Source: Paraspadella gotoi (taxonomy: Eukaryota; Animalia; Chaetognatha). Taken from it: DNA of 64,000 nt. Under the pieces are notes generated by a model, which worked only from the letters and a program-made list of their open reading frames with translations, was not told where the DNA came from and searched no databases. This document shows, one piece after another, positions 11,151 through 56,100 of this stretch. Made by a program: the position numbers and the translations under genes. The first letter of the stretch is position 1. Each line of letters starts with the position of its first letter. Where the stretch lies: NCBI GenBank assembly GCA_051294375.1, contig CM119265.1, positions 2,973,256-3,037,255 on the forward strand, read 5' to 3'.

Positions 11151-11270
11151 CTGAAATAATTGTTTTTTTTTTTGTTTATTATTATTAGCCACTTTAAAAC
11201 TTAAAACTTAAAACAAACTTATTAGAAAGTTATAGATACTAATTATAAATAATTCTCATTCTTAATATAC

Positions 11271-12431: not shown

Positions 12432-15400
12432 TCAATCAGCCCTTGACTCACCAACGTGGTAAGCCCAATGAAGCTCGGTATGAACGGGATTATCCATTTT
12501 CGAGTAGTCTAACCCAATCTGCAGGTTATAGTCCATGCAATGAATGGTATACACGGAACCAGCTGGTATCGAGCTTGAATAGAAATGCAATCCGTTCCAG
12601 TCGTAAAAGCGAAAGATTTCCTTATCAAGTTCGTCAAAGAAGCTGGAATTACAAGCTCCTTCAACGACCGGGGCCAAGTCTGGACTTTGAAGACTGCGTG
12701 CAGCGTGGAGATCTTCGTCGATCAAACCATCGCAGTCGTTGTCTTCGCCGTCGCCATTTTTCCATAAATGTGGGGCGATGAGATAATCCACTGCGGGGAA
12801 TTAGAGAGTTCTTTAATTAATAAATATTATGCTAAAAAGGCGTTAAAATAGTAGGGAATAATCTGATTATTTCATCTCATTTTTTACTATTACTCCTTCC
12901 TTTATTCATTTTTTTACCATCTTTTATTTTACTTTATATTTATTTTTTTTACATTATGTTTTGTTAAATTTTAAATATTTTTCTTTATTCGCTATTATTC
13001 TTTTATCTCTAGCTTTTTACACCTTTTTGCTTTTTTTTCTCCTTCTTTTTATCTATTGTTTCTATTTTTCTGTTTCTCTTTCTTTTTTTTCTGTATTTTT
13101 TTCCTCCCTCTTTTCCTTTCTTTTCCTCCCTCTTTTCCTTTCTTTCCCTCCATCTTTTCCTTTCTTTTCTTCCCTCTTTTCCTTTCTTTTCCTCCCTCTT
13201 TTCCTTTCTTGTTCCTTCCCTCATTTCTTTTCTTTTCATCCCTCTTTTCCTTTCTTTTCCTCTTCCTTTCTTTCTTTTCCTTTCTTTTTCCTCCTCTTTT
13301 CCTTTCTTTTCCTCCTCTTTTCCTTTCTTTTCCTTTCTTTCCTCCTCTTTTTCTTTCTTTTCCTCCTCTTTTCCTTTTTTCCTCCCTATTTTCCTTTTCG
13401 TTCCTCCCTATTTTCTTTCTTTTCCTCCCTCTTTTCCTTTCTTTTCCTTTCTTTTCCTTTCTTTTCCTCCGTCTTTTTCTTTCTTTTCCTCCCTCTTTTC
13501 CTTTCTTTTCCTTTCTTTTCCTCCCCTATTTTCCTTTCTTTTCCTCCCTCTTTTCTTTCTTTTCCCCTATTTTCCTTTCTTTTCCTCCATCTTTTCCTTC
13601 TTTTTCCTCCCTCTTTCCTTTCTTCTCCCTTTTCCTCCCTCTTTTCCCTTCTCATTTCCTCCATTACCTCCACTTTTGTCCGCCGGAGTCTCGCATCCCG
13701 GCCGATATTCCGGCAATCTCCCGGCGGCGGAAAATTGCGCGAGGACGGTAGAGTGCGGCAGGCGACGTGAACGCCCTCGACGACGCTGAAGCAGCCGGAG
13801 ACTTGAAGGATGTTGACGCCAAAAGACGCAGACGGGGGAAGCGTGCTCCAGGTGGACGAGCCGATCGCCTGGGATGGAAGAAGAGAGGAAAGGAGAAAAA
13901 AGAGAAGTAGAGAGGAAAGTCGGAAGGAAAGTGAATAAAGAAAGATAATAAAAAAGTGATTAGGAAAAAAGAAGAGAGGGAAAAAAGAAAGAAGAGAGGA
14001 GAAGGAAAATGAGAGAAAGAAAGAAAAAAAAATAAATCGATTGTAAGAATGAAATCTACCACAAGCAGGTTTGATTTTGTGTTCCTATACTATTTGAATA
14101 AAATACTAGTAAAATATTTCATTTTTTTAAGAAAATTACCTTTCCGCACTTCGTATTTGAAGTTGACGTAATCTAAATGAGTCATCGAGGTCCAGTTTTG
14201 CGAGATTTCTCATGGTTGATGTAAAGTCCTTCCTACATATTTTTATATTCAACATTAAAATAGAAATAATCCGGCAGTATTTATCAGTCTCACATTAAAT
14301 ACCTATACAATCCTCTTTGATCACGATAGAGAGGACATAAAAATTGTCACTGTCCAACAAAACGTCATATTTGTAGGAAAATGAGGCTGTGGGTGGAAAC
14401 TGAACCCAATGAGTTAGAGATTTTGACCATATTTCGCCATAACGTGACACGGACTGGAGCACTTGATCTTTACAAAGCGCTGTCGCCTGGCGACGGTTCG
14501 GAAAGAGATAGCACTTTGGATCTCTCTGGATTCGACGCATAACAAATTTATCGTCCAGATGCAGACCTAAATAAACAAAAGAGTTTCAATTGTTCTGTTT
14601 ATTTGCTTTGCAACACATTCATTAAACAAAAATATTATCTATTGTCTATCAGAAATGTTAAATTAAACTACAAAATAAATATCATAACGCACATCGCGTT
14701 AATGTATTAGATTAAATATCTTAGTTAAAATCTACTTAAAGTTCCTTTTATTGGTTTTTTTTGTTAATGACAAGTCGCAAGAGATGGAAAAGTTTAGCTT
14801 TCGTTTTCAAAACGTGTCCAGGACAAATCAATTTTCTCCGCGAATCATAGTATTGAAAAATCTTTTTATTAAATCAATATAAAAAAATAAAAATATTATA
14901 CCATAAAGAATAGTTGCAAGGTTGATCGCGACAAATGACAAATAATTTCTACTCCACCATGAATCAATTCCACGATATGATCCTGGTGCCATAAATTTTT
15001 GCGGAAGAACTTGAAACGTAACCAGCAAGAGATTGCATGATAATTTCACCAAATAAGATTGAAATTTTGTAGACATTTGAATCCAAATCTGATTTAAAAA
15101 AAAAAGGTCATTGTTGTTATCATAAAAATAAAGGGAAACTGTCTCAGACACGGAAGTTACTTATTTTTCACATTTTCTTACCAGTAACATTTAAGGCGGC
15201 GTATTCAGAAGTACTGGTTGCGTTTGAATAACTCTCTCATTTCTTTTACAGATGTATTTGTTACTGGAATGAGACCATAACGCAAATTGTTAGCTGATAA
15301 AGCCCATGTGTTTCTTGGAATTGATATTTGTAGCCCTGTCATTTGTAACAGTTGTATTAATGATTTTTATGTTAATATAAGTTTTTACTACTTCTTAAAC

Positions 15401-16989
15401 CTGAACATCCATGGGAAGCAGATAAAGAAAGCCGTACTCCCCGGATTTGCTCTTGTAGTAAGCTAAGACCAAGATCTCTACAGGGGAGCTCAGTATAATG
15501 ATCAGGGTCCGTCCTCTGGTGAACTGCATTCGTTCATCCAAGTCGAAGTTGGATACCTCATCTATCATTGGCTGGAAAAGAAAATATTGTCACTTAGCTT
15601 TTACCACTGATGATGACTTAAAAAATAGGTCGAAATATTGGCAAAAAAATAACGTTTTTGTACTCGCGCACTGCCTCTCAATAGTGAAATTAGAATTAAT
15701 ACTTAAACTACTCACAGTGCATGTGATTACTTTAAAGAATTGTATCTATTTTTTAAAATAATAGATATCAATCAATTCTCGTTATGTAATAAATTTTGTA
15801 CATTACGCAGTACGCACCAACAGAATTTTTTGAAAATAATTCTCTATTCTGTTAAGGTGTATGAAATTTAATTGCAAAAATACTGGATTATTTTTTTTAT
15901 CGAGCCAGACGGAACCCTGGCCGCTATACTTAAAATTACTTCTTTGTGACGTAGTCGTCGTCGTCGTTGTCTCGTCGTGTCGTCGTCTGTCGTGCGTCAC
16001 GCTTTTTTATATAATAAACTACTACGCTTTTTATAGTTTCGGCTGGGATTTAGTTTTTTTAAATAAAAATAACTATGAATTACGATGAAATTTTTATAAA
16101 AGTGTGCGATCATAGTAAGTTATTTTAAAATAATGGTAATAGGATAGAACGAAATTAACTCATTGAAGTCTTATTGAAGCTGGTGTGGTGCCTGTCATTC
16201 GACTCTCATCCCAAAATTCTTGGGTTCTACATTTTGAACCAAAGCTCCGGAGACTGCTTATTAATTCATTTATTATTTATCATTAATTGACACCAATGTA
16301 TCTGTCTCTGTAGTAATAATCAATTGTATCAATTTATAACCATTACTTAACCACATCAACTTACACGTCACAGAGAAAATCTGCAACAATCCATCCATCT
16401 CTGTTGACCAAATGAAACGTTACAGTGACCAATTGGTTCGCATGCAACATGAACGTCCACAATTGATCGCAGAAACGCGGCACAAAATGTTCCGCCCCAA
16501 TAATTCCGACCGTTCCATGGCGTTGATCAACCGGTCCCGAGCAACGTGACTCGTCCAAAGTCGTTTTTTCTGCTGCCAGACCATTGAAGTAGAGTTTCAA
16601 TCGGATCTCTCTCCTCCCAATCATGAATCGATTCTTCGCAGGCGACTCAAGAAGTTTCGCTCGACGGCTCTCATCAAAACCCTGGCGCCAATCCGAGCCA
16701 AAAGGATGGTCCATTCTGCGCGGATCGAGGATCGAACCAGCGTCGCATGCAACTGGCGACGCAGGTCAGACCAACGGGCAAAAAACCGGGAAAGGGAATT
16801 ATTCTGGTAATCCATCGAATTTTGAGAGGATGTAAGGAACAATAAGAGGAGAGGGGCATGAGGTTCTTGCGGCGCCAAAGGAAGGATTCAAAGAGGGGAG
16901 ACCTTCGTCGATGAGGCCGTCGCAGTCGTCGTCGACGCCGTTTGCCGGGAAGGTAGCGGAATGATGAGGATCTTCAATGGTACATCTCT

Positions 16990-17034
<45 letters not shown>

Positions 17035-20000
17035 AAGAGATTTTGTCTCTTTGTGCTGCATATATAATTTTTAGAAATTTATTATTATACAAAAACAGTA
17101 TTGAAAATCAGAAAACATAAGAGTGTACAAAGAAAGAAAACGTATAGAAGNNNNNNNNNNNNNNNNNNNNNNNNNATTGCAAAAATAAATATTCATACGC
17201 ACATCGCGTTAATGTATTAGATTAAATATCTTAGTTAAAATCTACTTAAGTTCCTTTATTTGGTTTTATTTTGTTAATGACAAGTCGCAAGAGATGGAAA
17301 AGTTTAGCTTTCGTTTTCAAAACGTGTCCAGGACAAATCAATTTTCTCCGCGAATCATAGTATTGAAAAAATCTTTTTTATTAAATCAATAAAAAAAATA
17401 AAAATATTATACCATAAAGAATAGTTGCAAGGTTGATCGCGACAAATGACAAATATTTCTAGCTCCACCATGAATCAATTCCACGATATGATCCTGGTGC
17501 CATAAATTTTGCGGAAAAACTTGAAACGTAACCAGCAAGAGATTGCAATGATAATTTCACCAAATAAGATTGAAATTTTGTAGACATTTGAATCCAAATC
17601 TGATTTTAAAAAAAAAAGGTCATTGTTGTTATCATAAAAATAAAGGGAAACTGTCTCAGACACGGAAGTTACTTTATTTTTCACTTTTCTTACCAGTAAC
17701 ATTTAAGGCGGCGTATTCAGAAGTACTGGTTGCGTTTGATAACTACTCATTTCTTTTACAGATGTATTTGTTACTGGAATGAGACCATAACGCAAATTGT
17801 TAGCGAAGCCCATGTGTTTCTTGGAATTGATATTTGTACCCTGTCATTTGTAACAGTTGTATTAATGATTTTTATGTTAATATAAGTTTTTACTAGTTCT
17901 TAAACCTGAACATCCATGGGAAGCAGATAAAGAAAGCCGTACTCCCCGGATTTGCTCTTGTAGTAAGCTAAGACCAAGATCTCTACAGGGGAGCTCAGTA
18001 TAATGATCAAGGGTCCGTCCTCTGGTGAACTGCATTCGTTCATCCAAGTGAAGTTGGATACCTCATCTATCATTGGCTGGAAAAGGAAAATATTGTCACT
18101 TAGCCTTTACCACTGATGATGACTTAAAAATAGGTCGAAATATTTGGCAAAAAAATAACGTTTTTGTACTCGCACTGCCTCTCAATAGTGAAATTAGAAT
18201 TAATACTTAAACTACTCACAGTGCATGTGATTACTTTTAAAGAATTGTATCTATTTTTTTTTAAATAATAGATATCAATCAATCTCGTTATGTAATAAAT
18301 NNNNNNNNNNCATTTCCTCCATTACCTCCACTTTTGTCCGCCGGAGTCTCGCATCCCCGCCGATATTCCGGCAATCTCCCGGCGGCGGAAAATTGCGCGA
18401 GGACGGTAGAGTTACGGCAGGCGACGTGAACGCCCTCGACGACGCTGAAGCAGCCGGAGACTTGAAGGATGTTGACGCCAAAGACGCAGACGGGGGAAGC
18501 GTGCTCCAGGTGGACGAGCCGATCGCCTGGGATGGAAGAAGAGAAGGAAAGGAGAAAAAGAGAAGTCGAGAGGAAAGTCGGAAGGAAAGTGAATAAAGAA
18601 AGATAATAAAAAAGTGATTAGGAAAAAAGAAGAGGAGGGAAAAAAGAGAAGAAGAGAGGAGAAGGAAAATGAGAGAAAGAAAGAAAAAGAAAATAAATCG
18701 ATTGTAAGAATGAAATCTACCACAAGCAGGTTTGATTTTGTGTTCCTATACTATTTGAATAAAATACTAGTAAAATATTTCACTTTTTTCAAGAAAATTA
18801 CCTTTCCGCACTTCGTATTTGAAGTTGACGTAATCTAAATGAGTCATCGAGGTCCAGTTTTGCGAGATTTTCTCATGGTTGATGTAAAGTCCTTCCTACA
18901 TATTTTTATATTCAACATTAAAATAGAAAATATCCGCAGTATTTATCAGTCTCACATTCAAATACCTTACAATCCTCTTTGATCACGATAGAGAGGACAT
19001 AAAAATTGTCACTGTCCAACAAAACGTCATATTTGTAGGAAAATGAGGCTGTGGGTGGAAACTGAACCCAATGAGTTAGAGATTTTGACCAATATTTCGC
19101 CATAACGTGACACGGACTGGAGCACTTGATCTTTACAAAGCGGCTGTCGCCTGGCGACGGTTCGGAAAGAGATAGCACTTAGCGATTCTCTCGGATTCGA
19201 CGCATCAACAAAATTTATCGTTCCAGATGCAGACCAATATAAACAAAAGAGTTATATTTCATTCTACTTTACAATTATGTTCCATTTTTGTTTATTGTTT
19301 TGCGACCCATCTTAAACAAAAATGTATCTATTGTCTATGCAGAAATGTTAAAGTAATCCGGTTATTGCAAAATAAATATCATACGCACATCGCGTTAATG
19401 TATTAGATTAAATATCTTAGTTAAAATCTACTTAATTGTTCCTTATTGGTTTTATTTTGTTAATGACAAGTCGCAAGAGATGAAAAGTTTAGCTTTCGTT
19501 TTCAAAACGTGTCCAGGACAAATCAATTTTCTCCGCGAATCATAGTATTGAAAAAATTCTTTTATTAAAATCAATATAAAAAAAATAAAATATTATACCA
19601 TAAAGAATAGTTGCAAGGTTGATCGCGACAAATGACAAAATATTTCTAGTCCACCAGAATCAATTCCACGATATGATCCTGGTGCCATAAATTTTGCGGA
19701 AAAACTTGAAACGTAACCAGCAAGAGATTTGCAAGATGATTTCACAAATAAGATTGAAATTTTGTAGACATTTGAATCCAAATCTGATTTTAAAAAAAAA
19801 GGTCATTGTTGTTATCATAAAAATAAGGGAAACTGTCTCAGACACGGAAGTTACTTTATTTTTCACTTTTCTTACCAGTAACATTTAAGGCGGCGTATTC
19901 AGAAGTACTGGTTGCGTTTGATAACTCACTCATTTCTTTTACAGATGTATTTGTTACTGGAATGAGACCGTAACGCAAATTGTTAGCGAAGCCCATGTGT

Positions 20001-21668
20001 TTCTTGGAATTGTATTTTGACGCCTGTCATTTTGTAACAGTTGTAATTAAATGATTTTTATGTAATATAAGTTTTTACTATTTCTTAACCTGTAACATCC
20101 CATGGAGCAATGAGAGAAGAGCCGTACTCCCCGGATTTGTCTTGCGTAGTAAGCTAAGACCAATCTCTACACAGGGAGTCCAGTATAATGATCAAGGGTC
20201 CGTCCTCTGGTGAACTGCATTCGTTCATCCAACGTGAAGTTGGATACCTCATCTATCATTGGCTGGAAAAGGAAATATTGTCACTTAGCCTTTACCACTG
20301 ATGATGACTTAAAAATAGGTCGAAATATTTGGCAAAAAAATAACGTTTTGTACTCGCCACTGCCTGCTCAATAGTGAAATTAGAATTAATACTTAATACT
20401 ACTTCACCAGTGCATGTGATTACTTTTAAAGAATTGTATCTATTTTTTTAAATAATAGATATCAATCAATCTCGTTTAGTAATAAATTTTGTACATTACG
20501 CAGTACGCACCAACAGAATTTTTTGAAAATAATTCTCTTATTCTGTTTAAGGTGTATGAAATTTAATTGCAAAAATACTGGAATTATTTTTTTTATCGAG
20601 CCAGGACCCGGCGAAGCTGGTCCTGGCCCTATAACCATTCAAAATTACTTCTTTGTGACGTAGTCGTCGTCGTCGTTGTCGTCGGCGTCACGCTTTTTTA
20701 TATAAAAACTACTACGCTTTTATAGTTTCGGCTGGGATTTAGTTTTTTTTAAATAAAAATAACTATGAATTACGATGAATTTTTATAAAAGTGTGCGATC
20801 ATAGTAAGTTATTTTAAATAATGGTAATAGGATAGAACGAAATTACTCATTGAAGTCTTTATTGAAGCTGGTGTGGTGGCCTGTCATTCGACTCTCATCC
20901 CAAAATTCTTGGGTTCTACATTTTGAACCAAAGCTCCGGAGACTGCTTATTAATTCATTTATTATTTATCATTAATTGACACCAATTATTCTGTCTCTGT
21001 AGTAATAATCAATTTGTATCATTTATAACCATTACTTAACCACAATCAACTTACAGTCACAGAGAAATCTGCAACAATCCATCCATCTCTGTTGACCAAT
21101 GAAACGTTCACAGTGACCAATTGGTTCGCATGCAACATGACGTCCACAATCTGATCGCAGAAAATCGCGGCAACAAATGTCCGCCCCCAATAATCCGACC
21201 GTTCCATGGCGTTGATCAACGGTCCCGAGCAACGTGACTCGTCCAAAGTCGTTTCTGCTGCCAGACCATTGAAGTAGAGTTCAATCGGATCTCTCTCCTC
21301 CCAATCATGAATCGATTCTTCAGACAGGCGGACCAAGAAGTTTCGCTCGACGCCTTCATCAAAAACCCTGGCGCAACCGAGCTCAAAGGATCGGTCCATT
21401 TCTGCGGGATCGAGGATCGAACCAGCGTCGATGCAACTGGCGACGCAGGTCAGACCAACGGGCAAAAAACCGGGAAGGGAATTATTCTGGTAATCGCATC
21501 GAATTTTGAGAGGATTGAAGGAACAATAAGAGGAGAGGGGCATGAGGTCTTGCGGCGCGAAGGAAGGATTCAAAGAGGGGAGATCTTCGTCGATGAGGCC
21601 GTCGCAGTCGTCGTCGACGCCGTTGCCGGGAAGGTAGCGGGAATGATGAGGATCTTCATGGTACATCT
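12432..21668 (-). CDS. Gene B middle exons: DxDCDGLIDE (Cu-binding_MopE-like) motifs and a second IgGFc-binding-like module, present in duplicated and frameshifted copies
   Basis: DNDCDGLIDED (~12710-12745) and DDDCDGLIDE (~16905-16940, ~21580-21620). Exons at ~13668-13868, 14303-14567, 14830-15337, 15400-15572 and 16375-16988 recur at 18326-21668. CSSPCHV..FPPTASFSYKYDVLLD..FYVLSIVI parallels the 24130-24383 exon. Boundaries are approximate. Confidence 0.6.
13080..13652. repeat. Polypyrimidine low-complexity tract (ttttcctccctc-like units)
   Basis: Almost pure C/T for ~570 bp. Confidence 0.9.
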
Positions 21669-22587: not shown

Positions 22588-25500
22588 CTTCGATCACGGG
22601 TTCGCAATTGAAGATGTTTTTCGGAATTCTTCCGGCGCCATAGAATCGGTCGAGGATGGTCGAGTTTATGCAGGCAAAGCGGCGCCCAGTGACGCCGTCG
22701 TCGCAGCCCTCGTTCTGGAAGACGTTTACGCCAAAAACGGCGCGCGGGTTGGCGTGGCGAAGATGTAAGACGGAGGTGCCTGGCGTTAAGAGCGAAAGAA
22801 TTATATGTACCTTTTTCTTCGAAGTAAGATATTATTTCATTCATTTTATGGTGGGATGTATGTATGTATGTAAGCGTTTTATCAGCCTAAAAAGTTTGTT
22901 TAAAATTTATATGATCTTATGGCAACAGCCGGGTTGCCTGTGATGCCCATTGGATGGGGCATCTCACTGTTGGCTTTGGGGGCTTCCGACCCTCAGTGAC
23001 GCCTCAGTCACTGGCGCGGTTACCCTAGGACGGTCTCCGCTTTGCCAACGCTAGAGGGAAGTCGTTTAGGACTGTGGATGGAAACGCTACGCCTGGGATG
23101 GTGTCGTCCCCCTCTGAGCCAATGGATTTGGCTGACGGATGGTGAACGTGAGGCGGTGTGAATATACCGCCAACAGGATCCCCGGGCCAAGACATCACTC
23201 AGGTTCCTCAGCCTGAGAGGTGCACTTTTTACCAATAGTGGGAGAAGAGAGAGAGAGAGGCGCGAGTTTGTGGGGGCATAGCGTTTTGTCCGTAGCGTAC
23301 CCAGGGCATAGGCGTTTGTCGTAGCGTACCCGAGAAGTTGGCAGGGCATAGGCGTTTTCGTTCGAGCCGGAACTCGGTGCGTACCCTAGAAGGTTCGGTG
23401 TTTGATAGTAGGGCTCACGCAACTTATGGCAACAGCCGGGTTGCCTGTGATGCCATTGGATGGGGCATCTCACTGTTGGCTTTGGGGCTTCGACCCTCAG
23501 TGACGCCTCCAGTCACTGGCGCGGTTACCCTAGGACGGTCTCGCTTTGCCAACGCAGAGGGAAGTCGTTAGGACTGTGGATGGAACACTACGCCTGGATG
23601 GTGTGTTCCCCTCTGAGCCAATGGATTTGGCTGATGGATGGTGAACGTGAGGCGGTGTGAATATACCGCCACAATATTTTGTTTTTTTCTAATTTCAGAA
23701 TTTATGATTATATACATTTATTCAGTACGTTTGTTCGATAAACAAATTGTTGTTTCTTTCATAATTAATTACTAATTATTTGGCTTAACAGAAAAACTTT
23801 TTTACCAATATCGATTTCATGTTTGATGTTGACATAGTCGGTATTGTTTATAATCAATTCCATTGAATCTTCGATAAGGTGGCCATTTGCGTAAATTCCT
23901 CTCTGGAAATTTGTTAATTAACAGTAGGGAGTCCTAATCAGCAATCACTCTCTCTCTCTCTCTCTCTCTCTCTTGCTCTCTCTCTTAAAATAATATTTTT
24001 ATAACACAGATATTGTAGAATTTTATCAGGTTTATTTAAAATTAAAGTTAGACTTTCATATTATTCGGTAATGTTAAATTTGTTCTTAATTTTTGAACTA
24101 GAACCTGAATTATTCCCCAAATCGCTCACCTTGTCCTTAGCTAAAACGACGATAGAGACGACGTAAAATTCTCCCGGGTCCAAAACGATGTCGTACTCGT
24201 TCGCAAAAGCATCGATTGGAGAATGGAAGGAAAACCAATAAGAAAAATCACTGTCCCGGGTGAGAACTAGGCAAGGACTAGAACAATCGACCCACAACCA
24301 CTGATGTTGAATAGAAGATAAATGGGCCACATGCAAGCTTTCCGACGCGCCCACCATGAACGTTTCTCCGGTGGTCAAGGATCTGAATTTGGCGAGATAT
24401 ACATAATATGTATATATATATACTATTACAATACAACGTAGTATGCATCTCTGAAAGTACACAGAGGAATTCAATCTTTCCATCAGAGACATTCTGTCAG
24501 AGACAAAGCGTGAGAAAAGTGTTAAATTTAATCGGGTATTCACCTCACGGTGACGTTGCAATCCAAATCTGGGCAGGATACAACCACGTTCACCGAGTGC
24601 CAGAGAAACTTATCTTTTTCCACATCCAAACTGACAGCGATTTCGACCAGATGGAATTGATGCCATCTGTCGACGGGGAGAACTTGAAGTTGACGAGTCA
24701 TGGAATCGAATTGGACAACGATCGACGAAGAAGAAGCTTTGATCATCACAATCGGCAAATTCGGTGGAATTTCTGGAATGAGACGGAACGAGGCCCCCAA
24801 AAAATGAGATTTAGTTTTAGGTTCCCCCCTGGGACAATAGAATGTTTCGTTATAGTCGTGGTACAAAGGCTTAAGTTTACCAAGGTACCGGGTTAAATTA
24901 CTTTTACCCATTCTAGGACCAGGACTCATTCCTTTGCTGGGGAATTTACCGAGTCGTTACTGCGTGATAAAAGTTTCCCCATTTCGGATTAAAATAAGAA
25001 TTTAGTATGTTTTCATGTTTAAGCATTAGGGTTTAAATTAGGGATTTGGTTGGAAATTTTGTTAAGGATTAGGGCTAGGGATTTGGGGATAATGTTAGCG
25101 ATTTGGGTTAGGGATTAAGAATTAGGGTTAGGGACAAGGTTAAGGTTAGGTATTAGTATTAAGGATTAGACTCTGATATTGGTTTAAGTATTTAGTAAAA
25201 TATTAAAATTAAAATTAATGGAATCAGAATCAGAAATAGGGTGCTTTCAGAGCCCAAGAAAGAAGCAACTTAAGAGAACACAGATTCAGGGAGATTGTCT
25301 TTGCATTTCTCCCAAAGTCTCACTTTTCACTTGCTCACTCCCCTTAAACTCACCAACAGGTATTTTTTTTATTTCACCAGCGACGAGGTTTTCCTCCCAC
25401 GAATCTTCCCAATTGGAAACACTCACATTCACAGTCACAGATTCAATGGCGACGATGCGAATATCAGCATTTGTGAAATAACTCGTACCCTGTTTTAAAT

Positions 25501-26657: not shown

Positions 26658-27294
26658 TTGTTTTGATAATTTACTATAAATATTTATATGCTCATAACTC
26701 TCGTAATACTTTATTTATATCAGAAATATATATACTGTATTATGAAACCTTCTTTTCGCCTCTGCAATCATATGGCCAGAAGCTACTGAGCCTTAAAGTT
26801 TATTATTTGACAGTCAGGATTTAAAGCTGCCTCACTTCTGTCCGTACTTTAGCCTCGTCTAAATAGCTGACCAGGCTAAATCATCTCGTTTCATCCGTGC
26901 GTCCAGGGTTCAATCCCCGGGTATAGCGGTTCTGACTTAAATGTTATGGAGCCGGTCTAAACATGCCAGTGATAGGAGGCAGTCACTGAGGGTCCACAGC
27001 CCCTACGCCAGTTGGTGAGATAACCCGAGCCCTGAGTAACGCAAGTAATCCTCCCTTTACCCTAATATAACATATTGTCTACAAGTTTCAAATGATTCGA
27101 ACACGAGGAAAGAAAGTTAATCAGGCGCAACACCTTTCCTCATTTACTACTACGTCGCTATGCAAATAGCAATGTCGTTTGAGACTAATTCAGCCCATTT
27201 AATTGTTTCATTTTAAGTAATATACGAACTTACCTTGGGCGAAGGAGTCCGCTGAGAGGACGGCGATGACGACAAAGAAGATTCGTGATAACAT
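22588..27294 (-). CDS. Gene B 5' exons: signal peptide and FCGBP-type IgGFc-binding-like N-terminal domain
   Basis: Exons 27234-27294 (MLSRIFFVVIAVLSADSFAQ), ~26449-26608 (PDYWGRDF, one homopolymer frameshift), 26115-26276, 25354-25489 (GTSYF), ~24544-24931 (LQVLPVDRW), 24130-24383, ~23805-23902 and ~22588-22779 (HANPRAVFGVNVF). Splice phases are mostly consistent. Domain identity is from motif resemblance only. Confidence 0.65.
22969..23049 (-). ncRNA. Twister ribozyme, P5 permutation (3' LTR copy)
   Basis: GTTGGC aaa GCGG a GA CCG tcctaggg TAA CCGC GC CAGTGAC..GTCACTG A GGG T CGG AA GC CCC caaa GCCAAC. Confidence 0.75.
23475..23553 (-). ncRNA. Twister ribozyme, P5 permutation (5' LTR copy; one G missing in L4, possibly a sequencing error)
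   Basis: Same motif as 27543-27623, except L4 reads TCGAAGC. Confidence 0.65.
24965..25270. mobile_element. MITE-like element with degenerate TTAGGG-rich interior
   Basis: ccccatttc at the left, gaaatagggtg at the right, ttaggg/ttaagg-rich middle; related to 28160-28730 and 31097-31450. Confidence 0.4.
26855..27065 (+). mobile_element. tRNA-derived SINE-like element carrying a probably inactivated twister module at 26932-27011
   Basis: B-box GGTTCAATCCC at 26907-26917, then ATGT TA TGG agccggtc TAA ACAT GC CAGTGAT..GTCACTG A GGG T CCA CA GC CCC; tail ctttacccta; homologous to 53109-53260 (-). Confidence 0.6.
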
Positions 27295-27420: not shown

Positions 27421-27677
27421 TGTGGCGGTATATTCACACCGCCTCTCGTCCACCATCATTCAGCCAAATCCATTGGCTCAGAGGGGGAACACACCATCCC
27501 AGGCGTAGTGTTCCATCCACAGTCCTAACGACTTCCCTCTGCGTTGGCAAAGCGAGACCGTCCTAGGGTAACCGCGCCAGTGACAGGAGGCGTCACTGAG
27601 GGTCGGAAGCCCCCAAAGCCAACAGTGAGATGCCCCATCCCAATGGGCATCACAGGCAACCCGGCTGTTGCCATAAG
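27421..27677 (+). mobile_element. Solo LTR of the twister-bearing element, with ATAT target-site duplication
   Basis: Reverse complement of 23423-23673. ATAT at 27417-27420 and 27678-27681; the reconstructed empty site AGT-ATAT-ACT is palindromic. Confidence 0.85.
27543..27623 (+). ncRNA. Twister ribozyme, P5 permutation; predicted cleavage between U27569 and A27570
   Basis: P5 GTTGGC/GCCAAC; P2 CCGC/GCGA (one C-A mismatch); conserved GA at 27556-57; T1 CGG/CCG; UAA; T2 GC/GC; P3 CAGTGAC/GTCACTG; P4 GGG/CCC; L4 U-CGG-AA-GC. Confidence 0.8.
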
Positions 27678-30923: not shown

Positions 30924-33900
30924 ATGGCCGCCGCCGGCGACGATTGGCGGGTGGCGAAATGGCGAGCAAAAACCGAAAAACTCGAAGAGGAAATAAAAAG
31001 ACTTAAAAATGACGTCGAATCAGAAAGAAATAACGCGAAAGAAATCCTGACGAGACACAGAGCGGAAGTTGCAGAGGTAAGAAATAAAAGCCAATTTCGG
31101 CTCTCTTTTCCAAAGGAGCCTCATTTCTGTATCTTCATCACTTAAATTAAGTTGAACCTTCATCTTCGACCCTGATCAGTTAATAAACAAAGAATCTAAT
31201 CTAATCTAATCTCATCCTTAATGCTTAATCCTTAACTCAAACCCTAAACCTTAATCTTTAACCCTTGACCCTAATACTAAATTTAAGTTACTGTCCTTAA
31301 TCCTATTAATTAATCTAATCCTTAACCCTACTCCTTAACCTAATCATTAACCTATTCTCAAACCTTAATATTTAACCTATATTTTTAACTAAAAAATTAA
31401 CCCAATTCTGAATATAAGATGAAATGGGGCGTTCTCGGAAAGTAAGCCCGCATTTATTTTGTATTTAAAGAGAGAGATTCTGGATAGGAATCTGGGTAGG
31501 TTCTGATATTATTATTCATTATATTTTTTGCCTATATTTCAATTTACGTAGCGGAATAATTTTTTATGGCAGTTAACTTAAAATTGTGAAACAAAATGTG
31601 AATGGAAATATTTCCAATATTTGGGGGGGAAAAAATAAAAAAAGTTTGGCAAGTAAACAGGACAAGGTTCAGAAAGAATACAAAGAATTTTATCTACCCA
31701 TTGCATTCGATGTCCTTACAACAAAGTTTACAAACAATTTATATTACTTTTTATATAATATTGTATCAAATCTCAAAAATATTATCTCCTTTCCAACTGC
31801 GGATTGATCACGTTCAAGCAATCGTTTTCTTTTGACCAAAATTTGGTCAAATCCGGATACCACTTGACGGGAAGACTTGCATTGTGCAACGCCGAGCAGA
31901 GATGACAAAAGGATTGAGCGACGTTGAGCCTTCGGTCGCCGTAGACGTAGTAATCCTTTCGCCAGTCGAAGTAGCTGTTGTAGAGTCGATCGTCCGCGTC
32001 TATCTCCTTCAACTTCATCGCCAACTCCTTCGGAGTCAGACCGTTGGCGTCGACGAAAGAGTTGGGCGGCCCGTCTTCCTCGTAGTCGGACCCGCCTCTA
32101 ACGACGGGCACCACCAACGCGTCCATCAGCATGGACCAATACTTGCAGGAAGAGTAATCCCGACAGATGGAGTTTTCGAAAGCCAAGTAGAACTTGTATC
32201 GTTTGGTCAGCAAGGCGTAGCAATCTGGTGATCCTATGTTTGTCGTCTTGGGACATTTAAACGTCCCGCATCCGCCGTAGACGTCAACGTCGATGAAGCG
32301 ACGAAGTATCTGCACGTATTTCTCCCTTTGACTGTGGGGATGACAGTGAGAAACGAACCAAGCGGCCAAACGCGTCTTGTTGCCAGCGTAGTTGATTTTC
32401 TTGGCGTGAGCGGCCAATCGTTCCTCCACTGGCCTGATCTTGTAGACGCCGTGAGTCATCGGAATGTCGCTGTCTTTGCGATAAGTCATTGTCCAGTTGA
32501 AGAGATTGTCGAATCGACGAAGAGGTAAGCCAGTGTAGATGGGCGATTCCTGCATGAAGAAGATCCACCTTTGATGCCTCCGTTTTGATTTTGGCATGTC
32601 GAAGCCTTTGACGATCGAGCCTCGGACGAATTTGGCCGTAACAGCGACGTTGCGACAATGAAAGACGACGGCGTCGGCTACGGCGAGTCGACTTCGGTCG
32701 CTCGTCGTCTCGCAGGCGCGCTCGGGGCATTCAGCGTCGACGAAAGGTTGGATGCCGAGATTGAATCCGTAGGGTCGCTTCTCGAACCCTTTCTCCCAGA
32801 GGAGGATGAGCTTGCGGCGCTGGCTGCGACGTTGCGGCTTTGACGGCTGCTGTCGATTGAGAGGACGAGGAATGGAGAGGCCGACGTCGCGTCCGTAGTT
32901 CCATTGGCTCATTCGCCAAATTTGCAAAACGGCGAAGAGGAAAATAATTAAGAGGAGGAAATACTGAAGTCCGCGGAAGACGGCGTCGCGCGTCATCGTC
33001 GATTGCTGAATGGCGGGAAAACAAAATACAAAATTGAAGAGACGGTCATAATTGTTATGAGTTAGTGACAGAACCGTTCCCGCCTGTTACACAGTGTTAC
33101 AGCCTGATCCGAAGCTCATAACAATTATTATTGTCTCTTCGATATACTGTTTCCTACCAACATACAAAATATCATCTCCATCCATTCATCCGTTTACAAG
33201 TAATTGGATACTAACGCTAAGCGGGGACGGACATACGGACGGAGGGACCGACGGACATAATTTTGTTTGCATAATTTATCATAATTCGATGTTCTAATTT
33301 AGGAGACTGATCGACCAAATTATAGGGGGGGGCGACCGACAGACTTACAAAGTGGATAATAGAGTCGGAATCTGCCATAGACAGATCCGATTAAAAATTT
33401 ATTTTGTTTCATTGCATATGAAAGTAAAAACATAGAAAAATCTTTTGGCACTTATTTTATTATAGTATCTCAAATCGTTAAGACAGGGCAGAACGTTAAG
33501 TTTTTTCCAGATATATGATCCCATCTCTGTATCTAAAAAAATTAGTTTTATACGCTCCGATTAGTATTTCTTAAAATAGTCTTTTTATTGTTTATATTTG
33601 ACAGTTACATGACAAGTCATGGAGGCAATACATGAAATATAAAAGTTCAATCATTTAATGAGTGAACGGAGGCTTCGTAGTCGGCTCAACAACAGACATG
33701 ATTTTTTTTTAGTTAACGGAATTTATTAGTGAATGGCAAAGTTTTTGATTTTTGCAACAAATTTTAATTTAACATAGAAACGGACATGTTTCGGCTTTGG
33801 ATGCAAGCCTTCATCAGCGTTTTTACAGTTTTTGCCATTCTCTAATAAATTCAAAACAACGAAAAACAAAGGATTAAATACACTATGTTAACGGAATTAA

Positions 33901-36900
33901 ATTTGTATATATTTAAAATAATTAAAAATGCTTTCAAAGATTGAGTTGGCAAGACAGAGAATTCATAGATATAGACTTTGAGACCGAGTTCCATGTATTC
34001 ATTCCTCTTTGGAGAAACAATTTTTGAAAAGGATTAAGTTGAAATCGCAAAAAAGTTGAAAAAAAAGATGACTTTAATTACATTTATTACTATGTATCAA
34101 TATTGCTACGTTTTCGTTTTAAAAATTGTTTTTGGCTCTAAATTCGAAAAGTCGTAACTCGAATGAGTCTAAAGTTTAAAGTCATCCGTTCGTTTTGGAA
34201 AATTAAACTGTTTCTTTTTTTTTACAAATTTTTTTTATTTTAGTTTTGAAAACATTTATTTCGGTCGCCATGACGACGGTGAACAGCAGATTTTCTCCAA
34301 GCCTAATTAAAAACGGAAAAAAAGCTTTAATAATCAGAGAAATTTTCCTTTTTCAATTTTTTTTTGGAAAAAGAAAAAGAAATCAAACTTATACAATAAT
34401 NNNNNNNNNNNNNNNNNNNNNNNNNAGAGAGAGATTCCTATTCCATCCTTCCTCCTATCTTTCCCGCCCGTCCCCCGCCCGCCCCTGTGAATTTTAATTT
34501 TTCTCCTTCCTCCCTTCCCTTTTTCCTTCTTCCCCCTTACTCCCCCGCCCGCCCTGCTAATTCTATTCTCCTTCCTCCCCTCCTTTTTTCTTCTTTCCCC
34601 CTTCCGCCCCCCCCGCTGCTAACCTTCTATTCTCCTTCCTCCACTCATCCTTTTTCCTCTCCCCCAGCGCCCGCCCGCCCCTGCAATTCTATTCTCTTCC
34701 TTCTTCCCCCTGCCCCGCCCGCGCCCCTGCGAATTTTATTCTCTTCTCCTCTCCTTTTCTTCTTCCCCTCCCCCACCGCCCGCCCCTGCTAACTCTATTC
34801 TCCTTCCTCTCCCTCTCCTTTTTTTCTTCTTCCCCCCTCCCCCGCCCGCCCCTGCTAATTCTATCTCTTCCTCCCTCCTCCTTTTTTCCTTTTCCCCCTC
34901 CCCCGCCCGCCCTGCGAATTTTATTCTCCTCCTCCCTCTCCTTTTTCCCTTCTTCCCCTCCCCTCCGCGATAAAAGTTGGGACGAGGAGGTAGGTTCGTC
35001 CGCAACCGACTATCCCTCCTCCACCCAGCGATCCGAAGCGCCTTCGTCGGCCCGGAAAAAAATCTTGGAGGAATCGAGCGGCCGCCGGGGTTCATTCCCG
35101 CGGGAAGAAGTATAGAAGGTTAAGGGAATGACTCATCGGTTTGATGAATGCAGAATGAATGAATAATGAAATGAATGAATAAATATATCATCAATCATTC
35201 ATAACTAGAATTCGCCAACACAACAAATTACACCAATGGTTATTTGAGTCACTAAAACATTTATTTGCAAGGTAGATCATCATTAATTTAATCAACATAT
35301 TTAACCGTAAACTAATGATAATCGGCAACAAGTCCATCGTCAACAACTTATAACCAAATTAGATAAAGGCATTAACGATATATAATGGGGATATTGTGGC
35401 AATCGTTTCTAAACTATTTGAGTATTTTTAAATAAATTTGGTAGCCGATCGATAGGAATTTAAATACTATCTATATGCAAAAAATATTTCATAAAATCGG
35501 ATAATCCGTTTCAAAAGTATGGCAATAAAAACAGATGCGAAATCGAGCGCTTCAATAGATCAGCTTTCACTTAAAATCGAAGCTCGTTTTTGATCCAATA
35601 AGGATTTGAACTACTGTAGTATGAGCTTTAAAACGATGATAGGCGATTATGCGCGAACCGGGCCCATAAGAGAAAAATAGAATAGCGAAGCCCGAAAAAA
35701 AGGAATCCTTACAAAATTAATCAACAAATACATAATTAATAACAGAATAAAAAAGGGAAAAAGACAAGAGAGCCAAAGAAGTAAAAATTGAAAAGTATAA
35801 TTGACTGATCTCACCAGCAAAACTAACTATTACACTAACTCAATTTAAATATCGTTAATTCAAGATTAAGAATTCACTATCGTCACTTCACGATTAAAAT
35901 TTTTCATTTTTTTGAATCAGTTTAATTTTAATGATAACAGATTTAATATGATAGCAATAAAACTATAAATTAAAAGATAATGATTGATAATGGTAAGTAA
36001 ATTGATGCAATGAATAAAATTAATTAAACTAATGATGAGACGCATAGTTTAATATCTAAAATTTGTCATATCTGAATAGGCTTAATTTTATTATGAAACA
36101 AGTTTGAGCAAACAATGTCGGATTTTGAATAAGAATAATTTAGCCAGTAATCAGTTAAAAAGTATGCAAGTTGAAAAAAAGATATGCAAGTTGAAAAAGA
36201 TAATGCAAGTTGAAAAAGATGTGCGCAAGTTGAAAAAGATATGCAAGTGGAAAAAAGTATGCCAATTGAAAAAGTATGCAAGTTGAAAAACAAAAATATG
36301 CATACTTTGAAAAAAGTATGCATACTTTGAAAAAAGTATGCATACTTTGAAAAAAGTTATGGCATACTTTGAAAAAGTATGCCATAATTGGAAAAAAAGT
36401 AGCATAATTGGAAAAAGTATGCATACCTTTGAAAAAAAGTATGCATACTTTGAAAAAAGTTAAATGCAAATTTTAAAAAAAGTAAATGCATACTTCAAAA
36501 AAGTATGCATATTTAAAAAAGTATGCATACTTCAAAAAAGTTTGGCATACTTTGAAAAAAAGTATGCATACTTTGAAAAAATGTATGCATAATTGGAAAA
36601 AAGTATGCATAATTAGAAAAAAGTATGCATACTTTTGAAAAAAGTATGCAATATTTTAAAAAAAGTATGCAATACTTCAAAAAAGTATGCATACTTTGAA
36701 AAAAAGTATGGATATTTTAAAAAAGTATGCATACTTCAAAAAAGTATGCATACTTTGAAAAAGTATGCAAACTTTAAAAAAAGTATGCATACTTTGAAAA
36801 AGTATGCATACTTGAAAAAAAGTATGCATACTTTTTCAGAAGGTATGCATACTTTTTTTGAAGTATGCAATACTTTTTTTAAAAATACGCATACTTTTTT

Positions 36901-43900: not shown

Positions 43901-44089
43901 GCCTCGCTTTCTTCGCCGGCCAACCGCAGCTTTCCCGCCGCGGTAGCGTCGCGGCGCGAAGGAAGAGATCGAGAGAGAGATCAGCAGCGAGCGAGTCGGA
44001 GGTCCTGAAAGAAGTTGGACGCAAGAGATACAGATGAGCGAAAGATGAGAGGACGAGAGAAGAGATGAAAAGAAAAGAAGAAAGAATGA

Positions 44090-44141
<52 letters not shown>

Positions 44142-50052: not shown

Positions 50053-50109
<57 letters not shown>

Positions 50110-53100: not shown

Positions 53101-56100
53101 NNNNNNNNGCTGGCGCACAGGGCTTTAGACCTACAGTGACCACCCCATGTAACTGGCGTTTTTTATGCCGAACCATCACATTTAACCAGCGTGACCGTGA
53201 AGGGATTAAACCGGAACTCACGGTTGGTGAAGGAGCACTTAGTCACTAAGTCCAAGCCAATGGGATGAAGCTGCGTTTCACTAAGCTATACGGGAGGCGA
53301 ATTTAGGATTTGCACCTATTTTTCCTGCATCCCTGCCTTCTATTTTTCCTGCCTGCCACCTTCCCTGCCTTCCCTCCTATATCACCACTTCCCGCTTCCA
53401 ATGTCATCCAATGTCACAAACGTTCCCCTTGTCATCCAAAGGTCTAGCGGTCGAAGGCCGATACGTCTTTGCCGACGGATTAGCAATGGACGACAAAGTC
53501 CGGCCCTATTGCTTGCAGCAGATGGACAGACGTTTCACACAGAGAGGGAGGACGGATTGAAACCGGCAGGAAGACTTTCTCTGACTGTTATCTCTCTCTC
53601 TCTCTCTCTTCTCTTCCTCCCTCACCCCATTTCCATTGCATCTCATCCATCAGGTCGATGTCAACTGACGAACAAAGACCCTCCCTCCCTCATCCCGCCG
53701 GCCACTATGATCCCGGGAACGGGTTCTTCGATCCGCGGACCAAGTTGATCGTCGACCCGGAGAAGCTACTCTTCAAGGAACACCCCAAGCCGGAGACGCA
53801 GAATTGGATCGCCAGGAATTGTCGGAAGGGTCGGTTAAGTTTTGTGGGGGGGTTAGTGGTGCGGATTAGGTGTCAAGGAAGTTTGGTTTTTTATTTATAT
53901 AATTATATATATTACTTTGTTTCTTTTTTGTTTATGTATTGTTTTATTTATTTATATATATTTATATTCGGCTCATGACTTTGGACCCTTGACGGTGGAC
54001 TCCTCTATCCCTCTTTACGAGGTAATAACATAGCTAGCTTAACATAGCAAGCTTTCTATCTAGACTCTCTCACAGTCCAAGCATATAAACTCCAGACTCG
54101 TTGGCCTGCCTGTAGTCGGGCATTGTATAAGTTCACCCTGCCTATAAGATTGACAACTTTAGTCGTGACCCGGTGGCTCAAGGAGTAAAGCCATCAGCTC
54201 ATGACCACTAGGTACCTGGTTCAATCCCAACCGGTCTCTACCCTGTGGGAAGTGTAAAAACCGCCTTAGGGCCCTGGAAAACCCTCAAGCCTGTTTTCAA
54301 ACCCAGGAAGCGTTCCCCCTTCCCCCGCCCGCCCCTGCTAACTCTATTCTCCTTCCCCCCTCCCTCTCCTTTTTCCTTCTTCCCCCTCCCTTCCCGCCCG
54401 CCCCTCTCCCGCCCCTAATTCTATTCTCTTTCCTTCTTCCCCCTCCCCCCGCCCGCCCCTGCGAATTTTATTCTCCTTCCTCCTCTCCTCCTTTCTCCTC
54501 CCCCCCTTACTCTCCCTCCTCCCCCCTTCCCCGCCCCCTCTACTCCCTTTTCCCCCGCCGTGAATTATTCTCTTTCCTCCTCTCCTTTTTCCTTCTTCCC
54601 CCTCCCCCCCCCCGAAAATGGTTGGGACGAGGAGGTAGGTTTCGTCCGCACCGACTATTCCCGTCTCACCCCAGCGATCGAAGCGCCTTCGTCGGCCCGG
54701 AAAAAAACTTGGAGGAAGTCGAGCTGCCGCCGGGTTCATTCCCGGCGGGAAGAAGTATAGAAGGTTCGGGAATGACTCATCGGTTGATGAATGCAGGAAT
54801 GAATGAATGAATGAATGAATGAATGATGAATATATATCATCAATCATTCAATAACTAGATTCGCCAACACAACAATTACACAATGGTTATTTGAGTCACT
54901 AAACATATTATTTGCAAGGTAGATCATCATTAATTTATCACATATTTAACCGTAAACTAATGATAATCGGCAACAAGTCCATCGGTCAAACAATTATAAC
55001 CAATTAGATAAAGGCATTAACGATATATATCAATCCATGACCCTATTCTTTCCAGAAAGAACCGATAGGTTTCGCCATCATGCACCGTTTCCTCATCATT
55101 TCTCCTCATCCTCCTCCCCCTCTCCCGGAGATCCAGGCTCGAGTCCAGGGTTTAGGTTTTTCATTCACGCTTTTTCCTCTCTTTCTCTCTCACCATCCCT
55201 CTCCCGTTCAGTCTCTGTTACCATTTTTTTTACCGCCGATTTAGCCGCTTACATTATATTTTCCTTTCCCACCATTTTCCCCCGTCTTTACTTACCTAGA
55301 TTTCAGTCAGACTTACCCGACCTTAGTTAGAGTGGCGCCCATGACGTCGCTCGAACCCCTTAACCACGAAAAACCCCGCTTTGAGTCCTGTGCTCGTTAC
55401 CCACTTTAAAACAAAAACAAGAAAATAACCTTGGCCTAGAGACCCAAAAAAAAAACAATTAAACAATTCCCTGACCCCGTCTTTTTCTCTCACCTACTTT
55501 TTCTCGCATCCTGGCCGAATTTTTTTTCGCCGCATCCTTGGACTAAATTTTTTTTCTGCGCCCTGGATTACTTTTTCTCCGCCCTTGGACTAATTTTGTG
55601 ATCACCGAAATTTTTTTCGTCTTCATCGACAATCCTTTTCACTCTCATCTCTCTCTTTGACCTACTGTTTGTTCACCTTTCCCTATAAACTTTCCTGTCG
55701 TTTCACCAAAATAAAAAGAACCCTGTGAAATTAACGTGACATTATCATAAACATTCTAAAGAAAATCTTTTTCTGTCTAAGTAAACAAAAAAAACAAAAA
55801 AAAAAGAGAACAAAACAAATAAACATTTCAAACTTTAAAAATAAAACTAAGACTTAACTAAGACTCCCCGCCCCCCTCACTAAAAGCAACTGCTCCGACG
55901 GCGATAAGTTTCTTCTTTCCACTTTTCGGTTCCCCTTTATCTCGGAAGAAATCATAAATTGCTGAGGAATTCTGACACCGACCTTGTTTTGAAAAAAGAG
56001 AAAAGAAAAGATCAATTTGTCACGAAAGAAACTTAAGAACAATAAAACAAAAACTTTAAAAAAAATCAAACCCTAACAAGTTTAATAACATTGAAAACAA

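Follow-up and report, generated by a model that had tools for sequence, protein, structure and literature searches.

A high-copy tRNA-headed repeat in Paraspadella gotoi carries the motif of a type-P5 twister with a loop-less, self-complementary P1

The window analysed here is a stretch of 64,000 nucleotides from the chaetognath Paraspadella gotoi, and its open reading frames (ORFs) mark it as animal DNA. Two adjoining uninterrupted ORFs on the reverse strand (2339-6202 and 8500-11175) encode the VWA, ZP, Sushi and EGF domains; another uninterrupted ORF on the same strand (31782-33086) encodes a glycosyltransferase of family 10 (fucosyltransferase). A unit of 2.2-2.5 kb with exon-like pieces occurs three times at 14672-20315 and is likely a tandem gene family, and an array at 36268-36869 is built of a 19-21 nt unit that contains the palindrome GTATGCATAC. 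We also noted a perfect inverted repeat of 1072 nt (46864-47935 / 51794-52865) together with identical direct repeats ~6 kb apart (43619-44890 / 49594-50881), which reflect either a recent duplication or an assembly artefact.

Our attention was on a tRNA-headed element at 26821-27066 (~246 nt), a decayed member of a family present in high copy number (Table 1). An original prediction, made from the letters alone, had placed a twister-bearing, tRNA-derived SINE at 26855..27065; this is the same element, although its start lies ~34 nt earlier, at 26821. The sequence ATAACATAT stands directly 3' of the element (27066), and the tail loose ends of contigs terminate in GTTGCCATA(A)G. No clear target-site duplication flanks this one old copy, the longest word common to both flanks being 6 nt long and located away from the ends. 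The spacing from A box to B box is 31 nt and thus tRNA-like, and both the A box and the T arm improve when the family letters are used. These three parts, the A box, the B box and the T arm, are the only clear ones in the head, for which neither ARAGORN nor the Rfam tRNA models called a tRNA ancestor. No T4 stop occurs within the element, and the first TTTT is at 27211. The leader of the family begins 43 nt upstream of the A box, and, given the start-site geometry of RNA polymerase III (Pol III), a transcript is unlikely to include a leader located that far 5' of the A box of the same copy. Elsewhere in the window, a further tRNA-like head was seen at 54167-54237 on the forward strand (A box TGGCTCAAGGAG, B box GGTTCAATCCC, CAT in the anticodon-like loop), with no ARAGORN or Rfam call and with no twister module 3' of it.

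Table 1. Coordinates of the tRNA-headed copies, their predicted parts and the neighbouring repeated unit, numbered from the first letter of the window
Feature	Position	Strand	Details
Whole decayed tRNA-headed copy	26821..27066	+	In three listed contigs from three runs the match begins at 26821, with differing sequence upstream
Leader, 5' of the tRNA-like head	26821..26851	+	Retained in other copies: loose-end consensus before 26851 in 4/4 runs (14, 6, 2 and 1 contigs)
Pol III A box	26864..26875	+	Family letters give TGGCTGAGCAGG
T-arm-like hairpin with B box	26903..26919	+	B box GGTTCAATCCC at 26907-26917; 5 bp in the family
Type-P5 permuted twister layout	26932..27011	+	P5a 26932-36, P2b 26941-44, general-base site 26945, T1b 26947-49, P1 26950-57
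Type-P5 twister layout, continued	26932..27011	+	TAA 26958-60, P2a 26961-64, T2 26965-66, P3 26967-88, P4/L4 26990-27003, P5b 27007-11
Loop-less self-complementary P1	26950..26957	+	Reads TGCCGGTA in the family; intermolecular pairing predicted
Predicted cleavage site	26958..26959	+	U^A of UAA, by position in the Rfam twister consensus
3' tail common to both families	27012..27066	+	Family hairpin GATACCC/GGGTATC at 27019-25/27034-40, broken in the flagged copy
Older tRNA-headed copy, the second with this design	53109..53304	-	GA intact, A at L4 position 6; an N gap ends the copy after P5b
Solo copy of the 257-nt unit	27421..27677	+	Intact twister motif 27544-27622; P1 TCCTAGGG; tail hairpin GATGCCC/GGGCATC; ATAT on both sides
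Two units around a 248-nt spacer, arranged as a partial tandem or like LTRs	22916..23673	-	Twister motif in both units, with single-base indels

Downstream of the head, the strand order is that of the type-P5 permutation, with the termini in P5. The original prediction had put a twister layout ~15 nt behind the B box, and we found all of its named pieces in place, with P5a (26932) starting 14 nt after the B box. In the flagged copy P2 (ACAT/ATGT) pairs at 4/4 positions, T1 (CCA/TGG) at 3/3, T2 (GC/GC) at 2/2, P3 at 7/7, P4 at 3/3 and P5 (CTGAC/GCCAG) at 4/5. The UAA at the cut site (26958-60), which supplies the general-acid A, is preserved, and no variant of it is listed in the contigs. As predicted, the conserved GA reads TA in this copy (26945-46), which places a T at the general-base site. 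When the general base of natural twisters was changed from G to U, mean cleavage dropped from 0.76 to 0.34 (PMC11662667, in part), hence the flagged copy would be at best weak; the earlier label 'probably inactive' is fair for this copy, but in those twisters cleavage was lowered rather than abolished. A descriptor of the P5 order, composed after the sequence had been seen and with the catalytic G left free, matched twice in the window (the flagged copy and 27552-27613), compared with 0.067 loose and 0 strict matches per window in 60 shuffled windows. Rfam twister-P1 matched only the 3' half of the flagged copy, weakly (19.4 bits, E 0.093, cut-off 67.2), and the 257-nt unit at 13.5 bits against the same cut-off; Twister-P5 (RF02684) did not match the flagged copy, and the gathering score of RF03160 or RF02684 was not reached. 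An Rfam scan of the whole window returned 24 weak matches, none of them to a ribozyme. The hammerhead families gave no match in the Rfam scans, and the twister stands in the place of a hammerhead.

Ten public sequencing runs contain the stretch or a part of it. From four of these, belonging to four studies, all contigs were aligned to the element: 497 matching contigs in run X1, which may be the source of the window, 159 in X6, 39 in X9 and 1 in X10. The repeat nature and an intact family motif were visible in all four runs. None of the ten runs is recorded as RNA, and X9 and X10, which can be taken for RNA by guess alone, were left out of any reading of expression. In X1 the core had a summed depth of 24,000-553,000 and the flanks one of 74-90, a difference that marks a high-copy repeat and is not to be read as a copy number. 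The family is short (246 nt), non-coding and dispersed in many copies. At 26945 it carries the general-base G in 98.1, 99.0, 99.4 and 100% of the depth (49, 27, 7 and 1 contigs), and at 26935 a G in 94-100% of the depth, by which P5 becomes 5/5; the P5 letters quoted in the original prediction were present but imperfect. Further family letters mend the flagged copy at 26973 (C, in P3), at 26865 and 26871 (G, in the A box) and at 26905 (C, in the T arm; 97.7% of the X1 depth). Thus, the majority letters repair the copy at precisely its functional positions. T1 in the family is CCG/CGG (26947 C and 26996 G, 94-100% of the depth), and the CCA/TGG of the flagged copy represents two CpG-type transitions private to it. 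The single X10 contig, labelled as another organism, unites in one molecule all 17 family letters of the stretch 26861-26996. In the consensus drawn from the contigs, the GA and the T1 and T2 pairings are all present, as the original prediction required, and likeness to the neighbouring unit extends beyond the P3 hairpin.

Position 6 of L4 (26997), normally a conserved A that belongs to the A.A pair of T1, departs from the twister consensus. It is C in the flagged copy and in the family, where no variant is listed at the 5% level, and A in the Rfam consensus, in the 257-nt unit and in the 53 kb copy. Changes here lowered mean cleavage from 0.76 to 0.42; A-to-U was tolerated and A-to-G was not, and A-to-C is not mentioned in the available sections of that paper (PMC11662667). 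The 53 kb copy scored 57 for the twister, compared with 15.1 ± 2.6 for shuffled sequences (reached by 0/500), and its head score was reached by 11/500 shuffles.

Upon inspecting the junctions between copies, we found at least two tail-to-head joins among the 696 contigs aligned, the flagged copy itself being a monomer. An X6 contig runs from 27017 back to 26847, and an X9 contig has the tail directly before 26873. The contigs also show a ~20-fold step in depth near the cut site; this was not taken as evidence that copies start there, since short-contig depth falls where the flagged copy has diverged most. In each of X1 and X6, four contigs join another upstream sequence to the same ribozyme core just before 26948; these have ATGC at P2b and an intact GA, and likely represent a third head on the same module. 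Scans with the family pattern returned 0 loci in viral contigs and 0 in metagenome contigs, and two loci in prokaryote genomes were rejected as chance hairpins without the rest of the motif.

The window also holds three copies of a repeated unit of 251-259 nt, one as a solo copy of 257 nt and two in a single element (Table 1). In the solo copy the twister motif has P2 at 3/4, P4 at 3/3, T1 at 3/3 and T2 at 2/2 pairs, and the general-base G is present. The original prediction took this unit for an LTR, a reading that fails on three hallmarks. All three copies start with TG and end with TAAG, so the CA end is absent; neither a primer-binding site after the unit nor a polypurine tract before the second unit was seen in the one element that has both, where TTGCGTGAGCCC follows and CCCGGGGATCC precedes (judged by eye against the TGG rule). 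Primer-binding sites of LTR elements follow a TGG-type rule. The 5' base is identical in both insertions. The solo copy is flanked by ATAT/ATAT and the two-unit element by ATAT/ATCAT, possibly an AT target, and all three right-hand insertion ends run into AT-rich sequence (ATAT-, ATCAT- or ATAAC-). A tRNA-like head in the unit was rejected, since 141/500 shuffles did as well. We noted that the 5' half of the solo copy (27425-27544, forward strand) is strongly folded into two hairpins and a three-way junction (z = -3.67 for the whole unit), with no notable Rfam match. In the spacer (23175-23422, reverse strand), ACGC(C)TATGCCC is repeated three times, a CT run is present, and ATTGGTAAAAAG lies ~55 nt before the second unit; by eye the spacer could be a Pol II promoter.

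Comparison of the two families bears on the fold and on how they are related. Between the SINE family and the 257-nt unit, paired double changes occur in P5 (one pair), P2 (two, one of them a C.A pair in the unit), T1 (one), P1 (two) and the tail hairpin (one), which bears out the covariation claimed in the original prediction. The T1 example holds in a corrected form: its quoted letters, CCA/TGG, are decay specific to the copy, but the middle pair of the family's CCG/CGG is flipped relative to the unit and thus still compensatory. The heads of the SINE and the unit are unrelated (their scores reached by 141 and 481 of 500 shuffles), and the ribozyme 5' half of the flagged copy resembles that of the unit no better than shuffles do in primary sequence (318/500). 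By contrast, P3-P4 is 87% alike, the likeness of the flagged copy's decayed tail to that of the unit was reached by 2/500 shuffles only, and the last bases of the unit match the loose-end consensus of 25 X1 contigs at 23/30 letters (hand count), both ending in GTTGCCATA(A)G. On this sequence evidence, both families share a 3' module of ~135 nt up to a common end, its fold kept over a long divergence. The original prediction had proposed that a ribozyme cassette was exchanged between a SINE and an LTR-type element. This is not supported: the likeness runs from P3 through the tail hairpin to the common 3' end, which is the pattern expected of passengers of one partner enzyme rather than of a swapped internal cassette, and P1, P2 and T1 have diverged with compensation, which argues for long separate descent rather than a recent swap. 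Elements of the Naiad and Chlamys type form partial tandems with pseudo-LTRs (pLTRs) at (TA)n targets, and these pLTRs have been mistaken for LTRs (PMC8557442, in part); the non-autonomous MRC1 was initially misread as an LTR element (PMC8557442 and PMC8969392, both in part). For the 257-nt unit, a Penelope-type pseudo-LTR is the likelier reading, which would make it a fellow passenger of one partner and not the donor of a ribozyme cassette.

The stem closest to the cut site, P1, was not part of the original prediction, and neither was the shared tail. P1 is 8 nt long in both families, has no loop and is self-complementary at 4/4 positions, so that all four pairs are possible only between two molecules. 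In the SINE family it reads TGCC GGTA (26950 T in 82-100% and 26957 A in 93-100% of the depth), and in all three units TCCT AGGG. The predicted energies are -10.9 (SINE family) and -11.0 (unit) kcal/mol for the duplex, compared with +5.0 and +2.7 kcal/mol for a forced 2-bp hairpin. In the window, 1235 of 63,783 8-mers (1.9%) are self-complementary; the two palindromes are not independent draws, because the families share ancestry. The 53 kb copy has seven decayed letters at P1 and is uninformative on this point. The stem occupies the place of P1 in the Rfam models, directly after T1b and ending directly before UAA, where the models have 8 bp and a loop. For comparison, we collected 27 phage loci by a P5 pattern that allowed 4-24 nt at P1 and fixed T1 as GGG/CCC, several of them near-duplicates. 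All 18 loci with 4/4 P2 pairs have 15-22 nt at P1, and Rfam Twister-P5 matched 17 of the 20 loci scanned. With P1 fixed at 8 nt, the P5 pattern found 8 viral and at least 119 metagenome loci; among the 127 listed, four have at least three P2 pairs and 3/3 in T1, and P1 is palindromic in none of those four.

Penelope hammerheads have a short palindromic stem III and cleave as dimers (PMC6765202 and PMC7229834, both in part). By this analogy and the modelled energies, the P1 of both families likely points to a dimer-pairing twister. P1 is, however, dispensable or tolerant of change in the twisters that were tested (PMC5408937, in part; PMC5113685; PMC11662667, in part), hence a monomer may cut without pairing; pairing may instead speed folding, join RNAs or serve copying rather than be required.

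That a SINE promoter should be followed by an intact ribozyme is puzzling, since self-cleavage would strip the promoter off the RNA destined for copying (PMC5786205, in part); the family nevertheless keeps head and ribozyme together. The simplest explanation, by analogy with Schistosoma elements and retrozymes, may be their read-through route, which the leader upstream of the likely Pol III start and the missing T4 stop would favour. Pol III would read through head-to-tail copies, and the ribozymes would cut at U^A, probably aided by two copies pairing via their loop-less P1. The product would be a permuted unit RNA that runs from the 3' half of the ribozyme through tail, leader and head to the ribozyme's 5' half; it might be circularised, and a Penelope-type reverse transcriptase might copy it from the shared 3' tail. 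No reverse transcriptase family was found in the 20 of 88 window ORFs that were scanned.

The leader may have a second role. A GCCTC lies in the leader of the flagged copy, and the SINE, the 53 kb copy and the unit all have one close to the 5' end; it is complementary to the P3 loop and can pair with it. In predicted ensembles, the probability of P3 fell from 0.99 to 0.07 in the flagged copy and from 1.0 to 0.43 in the solo unit when the leader was included, whereas unit a kept 0.88. This pairing was found post hoc and is borderline, being reached by 4, 108, 113, 28 and 98 of 2000 background windows. If the models hold, it may account for the near-invariance here of P3, an optional stem in twisters.

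Our interpretation, on which we are evenly divided, is that the flagged element belongs, as a decayed copy, to a high-copy family of tRNA-headed, non-coding repeats that carries a complete P5-twister motif and likely spreads like a retrozyme with the help of a Penelope-type reverse transcriptase. Of this, the family, its motif, the covariation, the common tail and the P1 without a loop were observed, whereas Pol III transcription, cleavage, pairing as a dimer, a circular or tandem template and the nature of the partner are inferred. A fuller version seems rather doubtful as a whole: that a Pol III SINE and its pseudo-LTR sister carry a strand-swapped dimer twister with a palindromic P1, silenced by the leader in unit-length (circular) RNA, and are copied by a hammerhead-less Penelope-type element.

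Possible, though we think it somewhat unlikely, is an ordinary SINE with a passenger ribozyme: the 3' end of a twister-bearing autonomous retroelement would have acquired a tRNA head, target-primed reverse transcription would copy monomer transcripts, and the head would escape loss because the ribozyme is weak or kept in check. The flagged copy is indeed a full monomer with C at L4 position 6, its leader is predicted to abolish P3 in this decayed copy, and a SINE head followed by an active ribozyme would be truncated (PMC5786205, in part). Such a SINE would, however, leave unexplained the conserved upstream leader and the absent target-site duplication; it also has to accommodate the two tail-to-head contigs and the retention of all catalytic and pairing positions but one, which holds for the family as well as for a second, diverged subfamily.

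It is improbable that the 257-nt unit is a true LTR, that of an animal LTR-retrozyme or TRIM, which exchanged its ribozyme module with the SINE by template switching. The TAAG end and the missing primer site and purine tract speak against an LTR, and a shared part that extends to the 3' end of both elements, together with the compensated divergence of P1, P2 and T1, speaks against an exchange; two direct repeats around a 248-nt spacer, the TG start and the closely similar P3-P4 beneath unrelated heads would fit, and the identical 5' base of two insertions with ATAT on both sides of the solo copy fits an LTR better than random 5' truncation. Very improbable, in our judgement, is a bipartite SINE derived from an RTE LINE, the twister being its 5' ribozyme joined to an RTE tail. 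Perere-3 RTEs are headed by twisters and end in GTAA repeats (PMC8501958, in part), comparable to the TAAG end here, and SINE bodies built from RTE 5' and 3' parts are known (PMC5786205, in part). Those ribozymes are nevertheless 5'-terminal, with copies beginning at the cut, whereas here both halves of the P5-permuted ribozyme are internal, and a single TAAG stands in place of a repeat run, with no target-site duplication.

To return to the retrozyme-like reading, two of its counterparts carry hammerheads. The SINE-like Sm-alpha elements of Schistosoma likewise combine a Pol III-type head and a self-cleaving ribozyme in one short repeat, and cleavage would free units from multimeric transcripts such that the promoter would then lie 3' in the cut unit (PMC6765202, in part), as we propose here; theirs is a hammerhead, whereas the present element has a predicted type-P5 twister and evidence mostly of monomers. 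The minimal dimeric hammerheads of Penelope-like elements (PLEs) and the non-LTR retrozymes of animals (PMC6765202, PMC7229834, PMC7761336 and bioRxiv 10.64898/2026.07.22.740005, all in part) also consist of short non-autonomous repeats with the ribozyme close to the 3' end, have a closing stem reduced to a palindrome that can pair only between copies, and show a partial-tandem layout like that of the sister unit. They differ in ribozyme class, and the tRNA-derived head is a feature of the present element; in the available portion of the bioRxiv text, 'twister' and 'tRNA' occur 0 times.

With type-P5 twisters (RF02684; PMC5408937, in part) the element shares strand order, P2, P4, T1, T2, UAA and GA. 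In these, P1 is a hairpin of 6-9 bp, whereas the element has a loop-less 8 nt, other T1 letters and, in the SINE family, C at L4 position 6, and the model does not match it. At the family level it is thus twister-like by all but two sequence criteria, and its membership as a ribozyme is a prediction. The T-variant twisters of Perere-3 likewise reside in an animal retroelement, but are 5'-terminal, truncated and of type P1 (PMC8501958, in part), in contrast to the internal P5 permutation near the 3' end described here. Naiad and Chlamys PLEs and non-autonomous forms such as MRC1 also have LTR-like partial tandems, (TA)n targets and no canonical hammerhead (PMC8557442, in part). The module is absent from the published Naiad tails searched or inspected, and the link to the present element is one of architecture: the Naiad consensus file (PMC8557442 supplement) gave no match to module words, which line breaks in the file can split, except TTGCCATA at one tail end, and none of the 8 of 54 tails inspected by eye has such a module. 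Four of those eight tails bear a palindrome of 8-10 nt right after CGGGTG, a motif unlike the one here (PMC8557442 supplement, in part).

In the mostly open-access literature, as far as its texts were available, twisters in retroelements appear only as the 5' T-variants of the RTE Perere-3 and in a remark on enrichment in plants, and no paper was found that combines a SINE, a head of tRNA origin and a self-cleaving twister. Within the accessible portions of that literature, a short repeat with a tRNA-type promoter and a dimer-type ribozyme was thus found described for hammerheads and not for twisters. If the dimeric reading is true, a 'cut only in tandem' design would have arisen by convergence in ribozyme classes that are unrelated, hammerhead and twister, and pairing of P1 between copies and masking of P3 by the leader would be possible ways out of the promoter-loss puzzle. 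If right, it would also mean that twisters have a dimeric form in nature and a part to play in the RNA circles of retroposons, and would suggest a substitute for the hammerhead in those Penelope-like clades reported without one (PMC8557442, in part).
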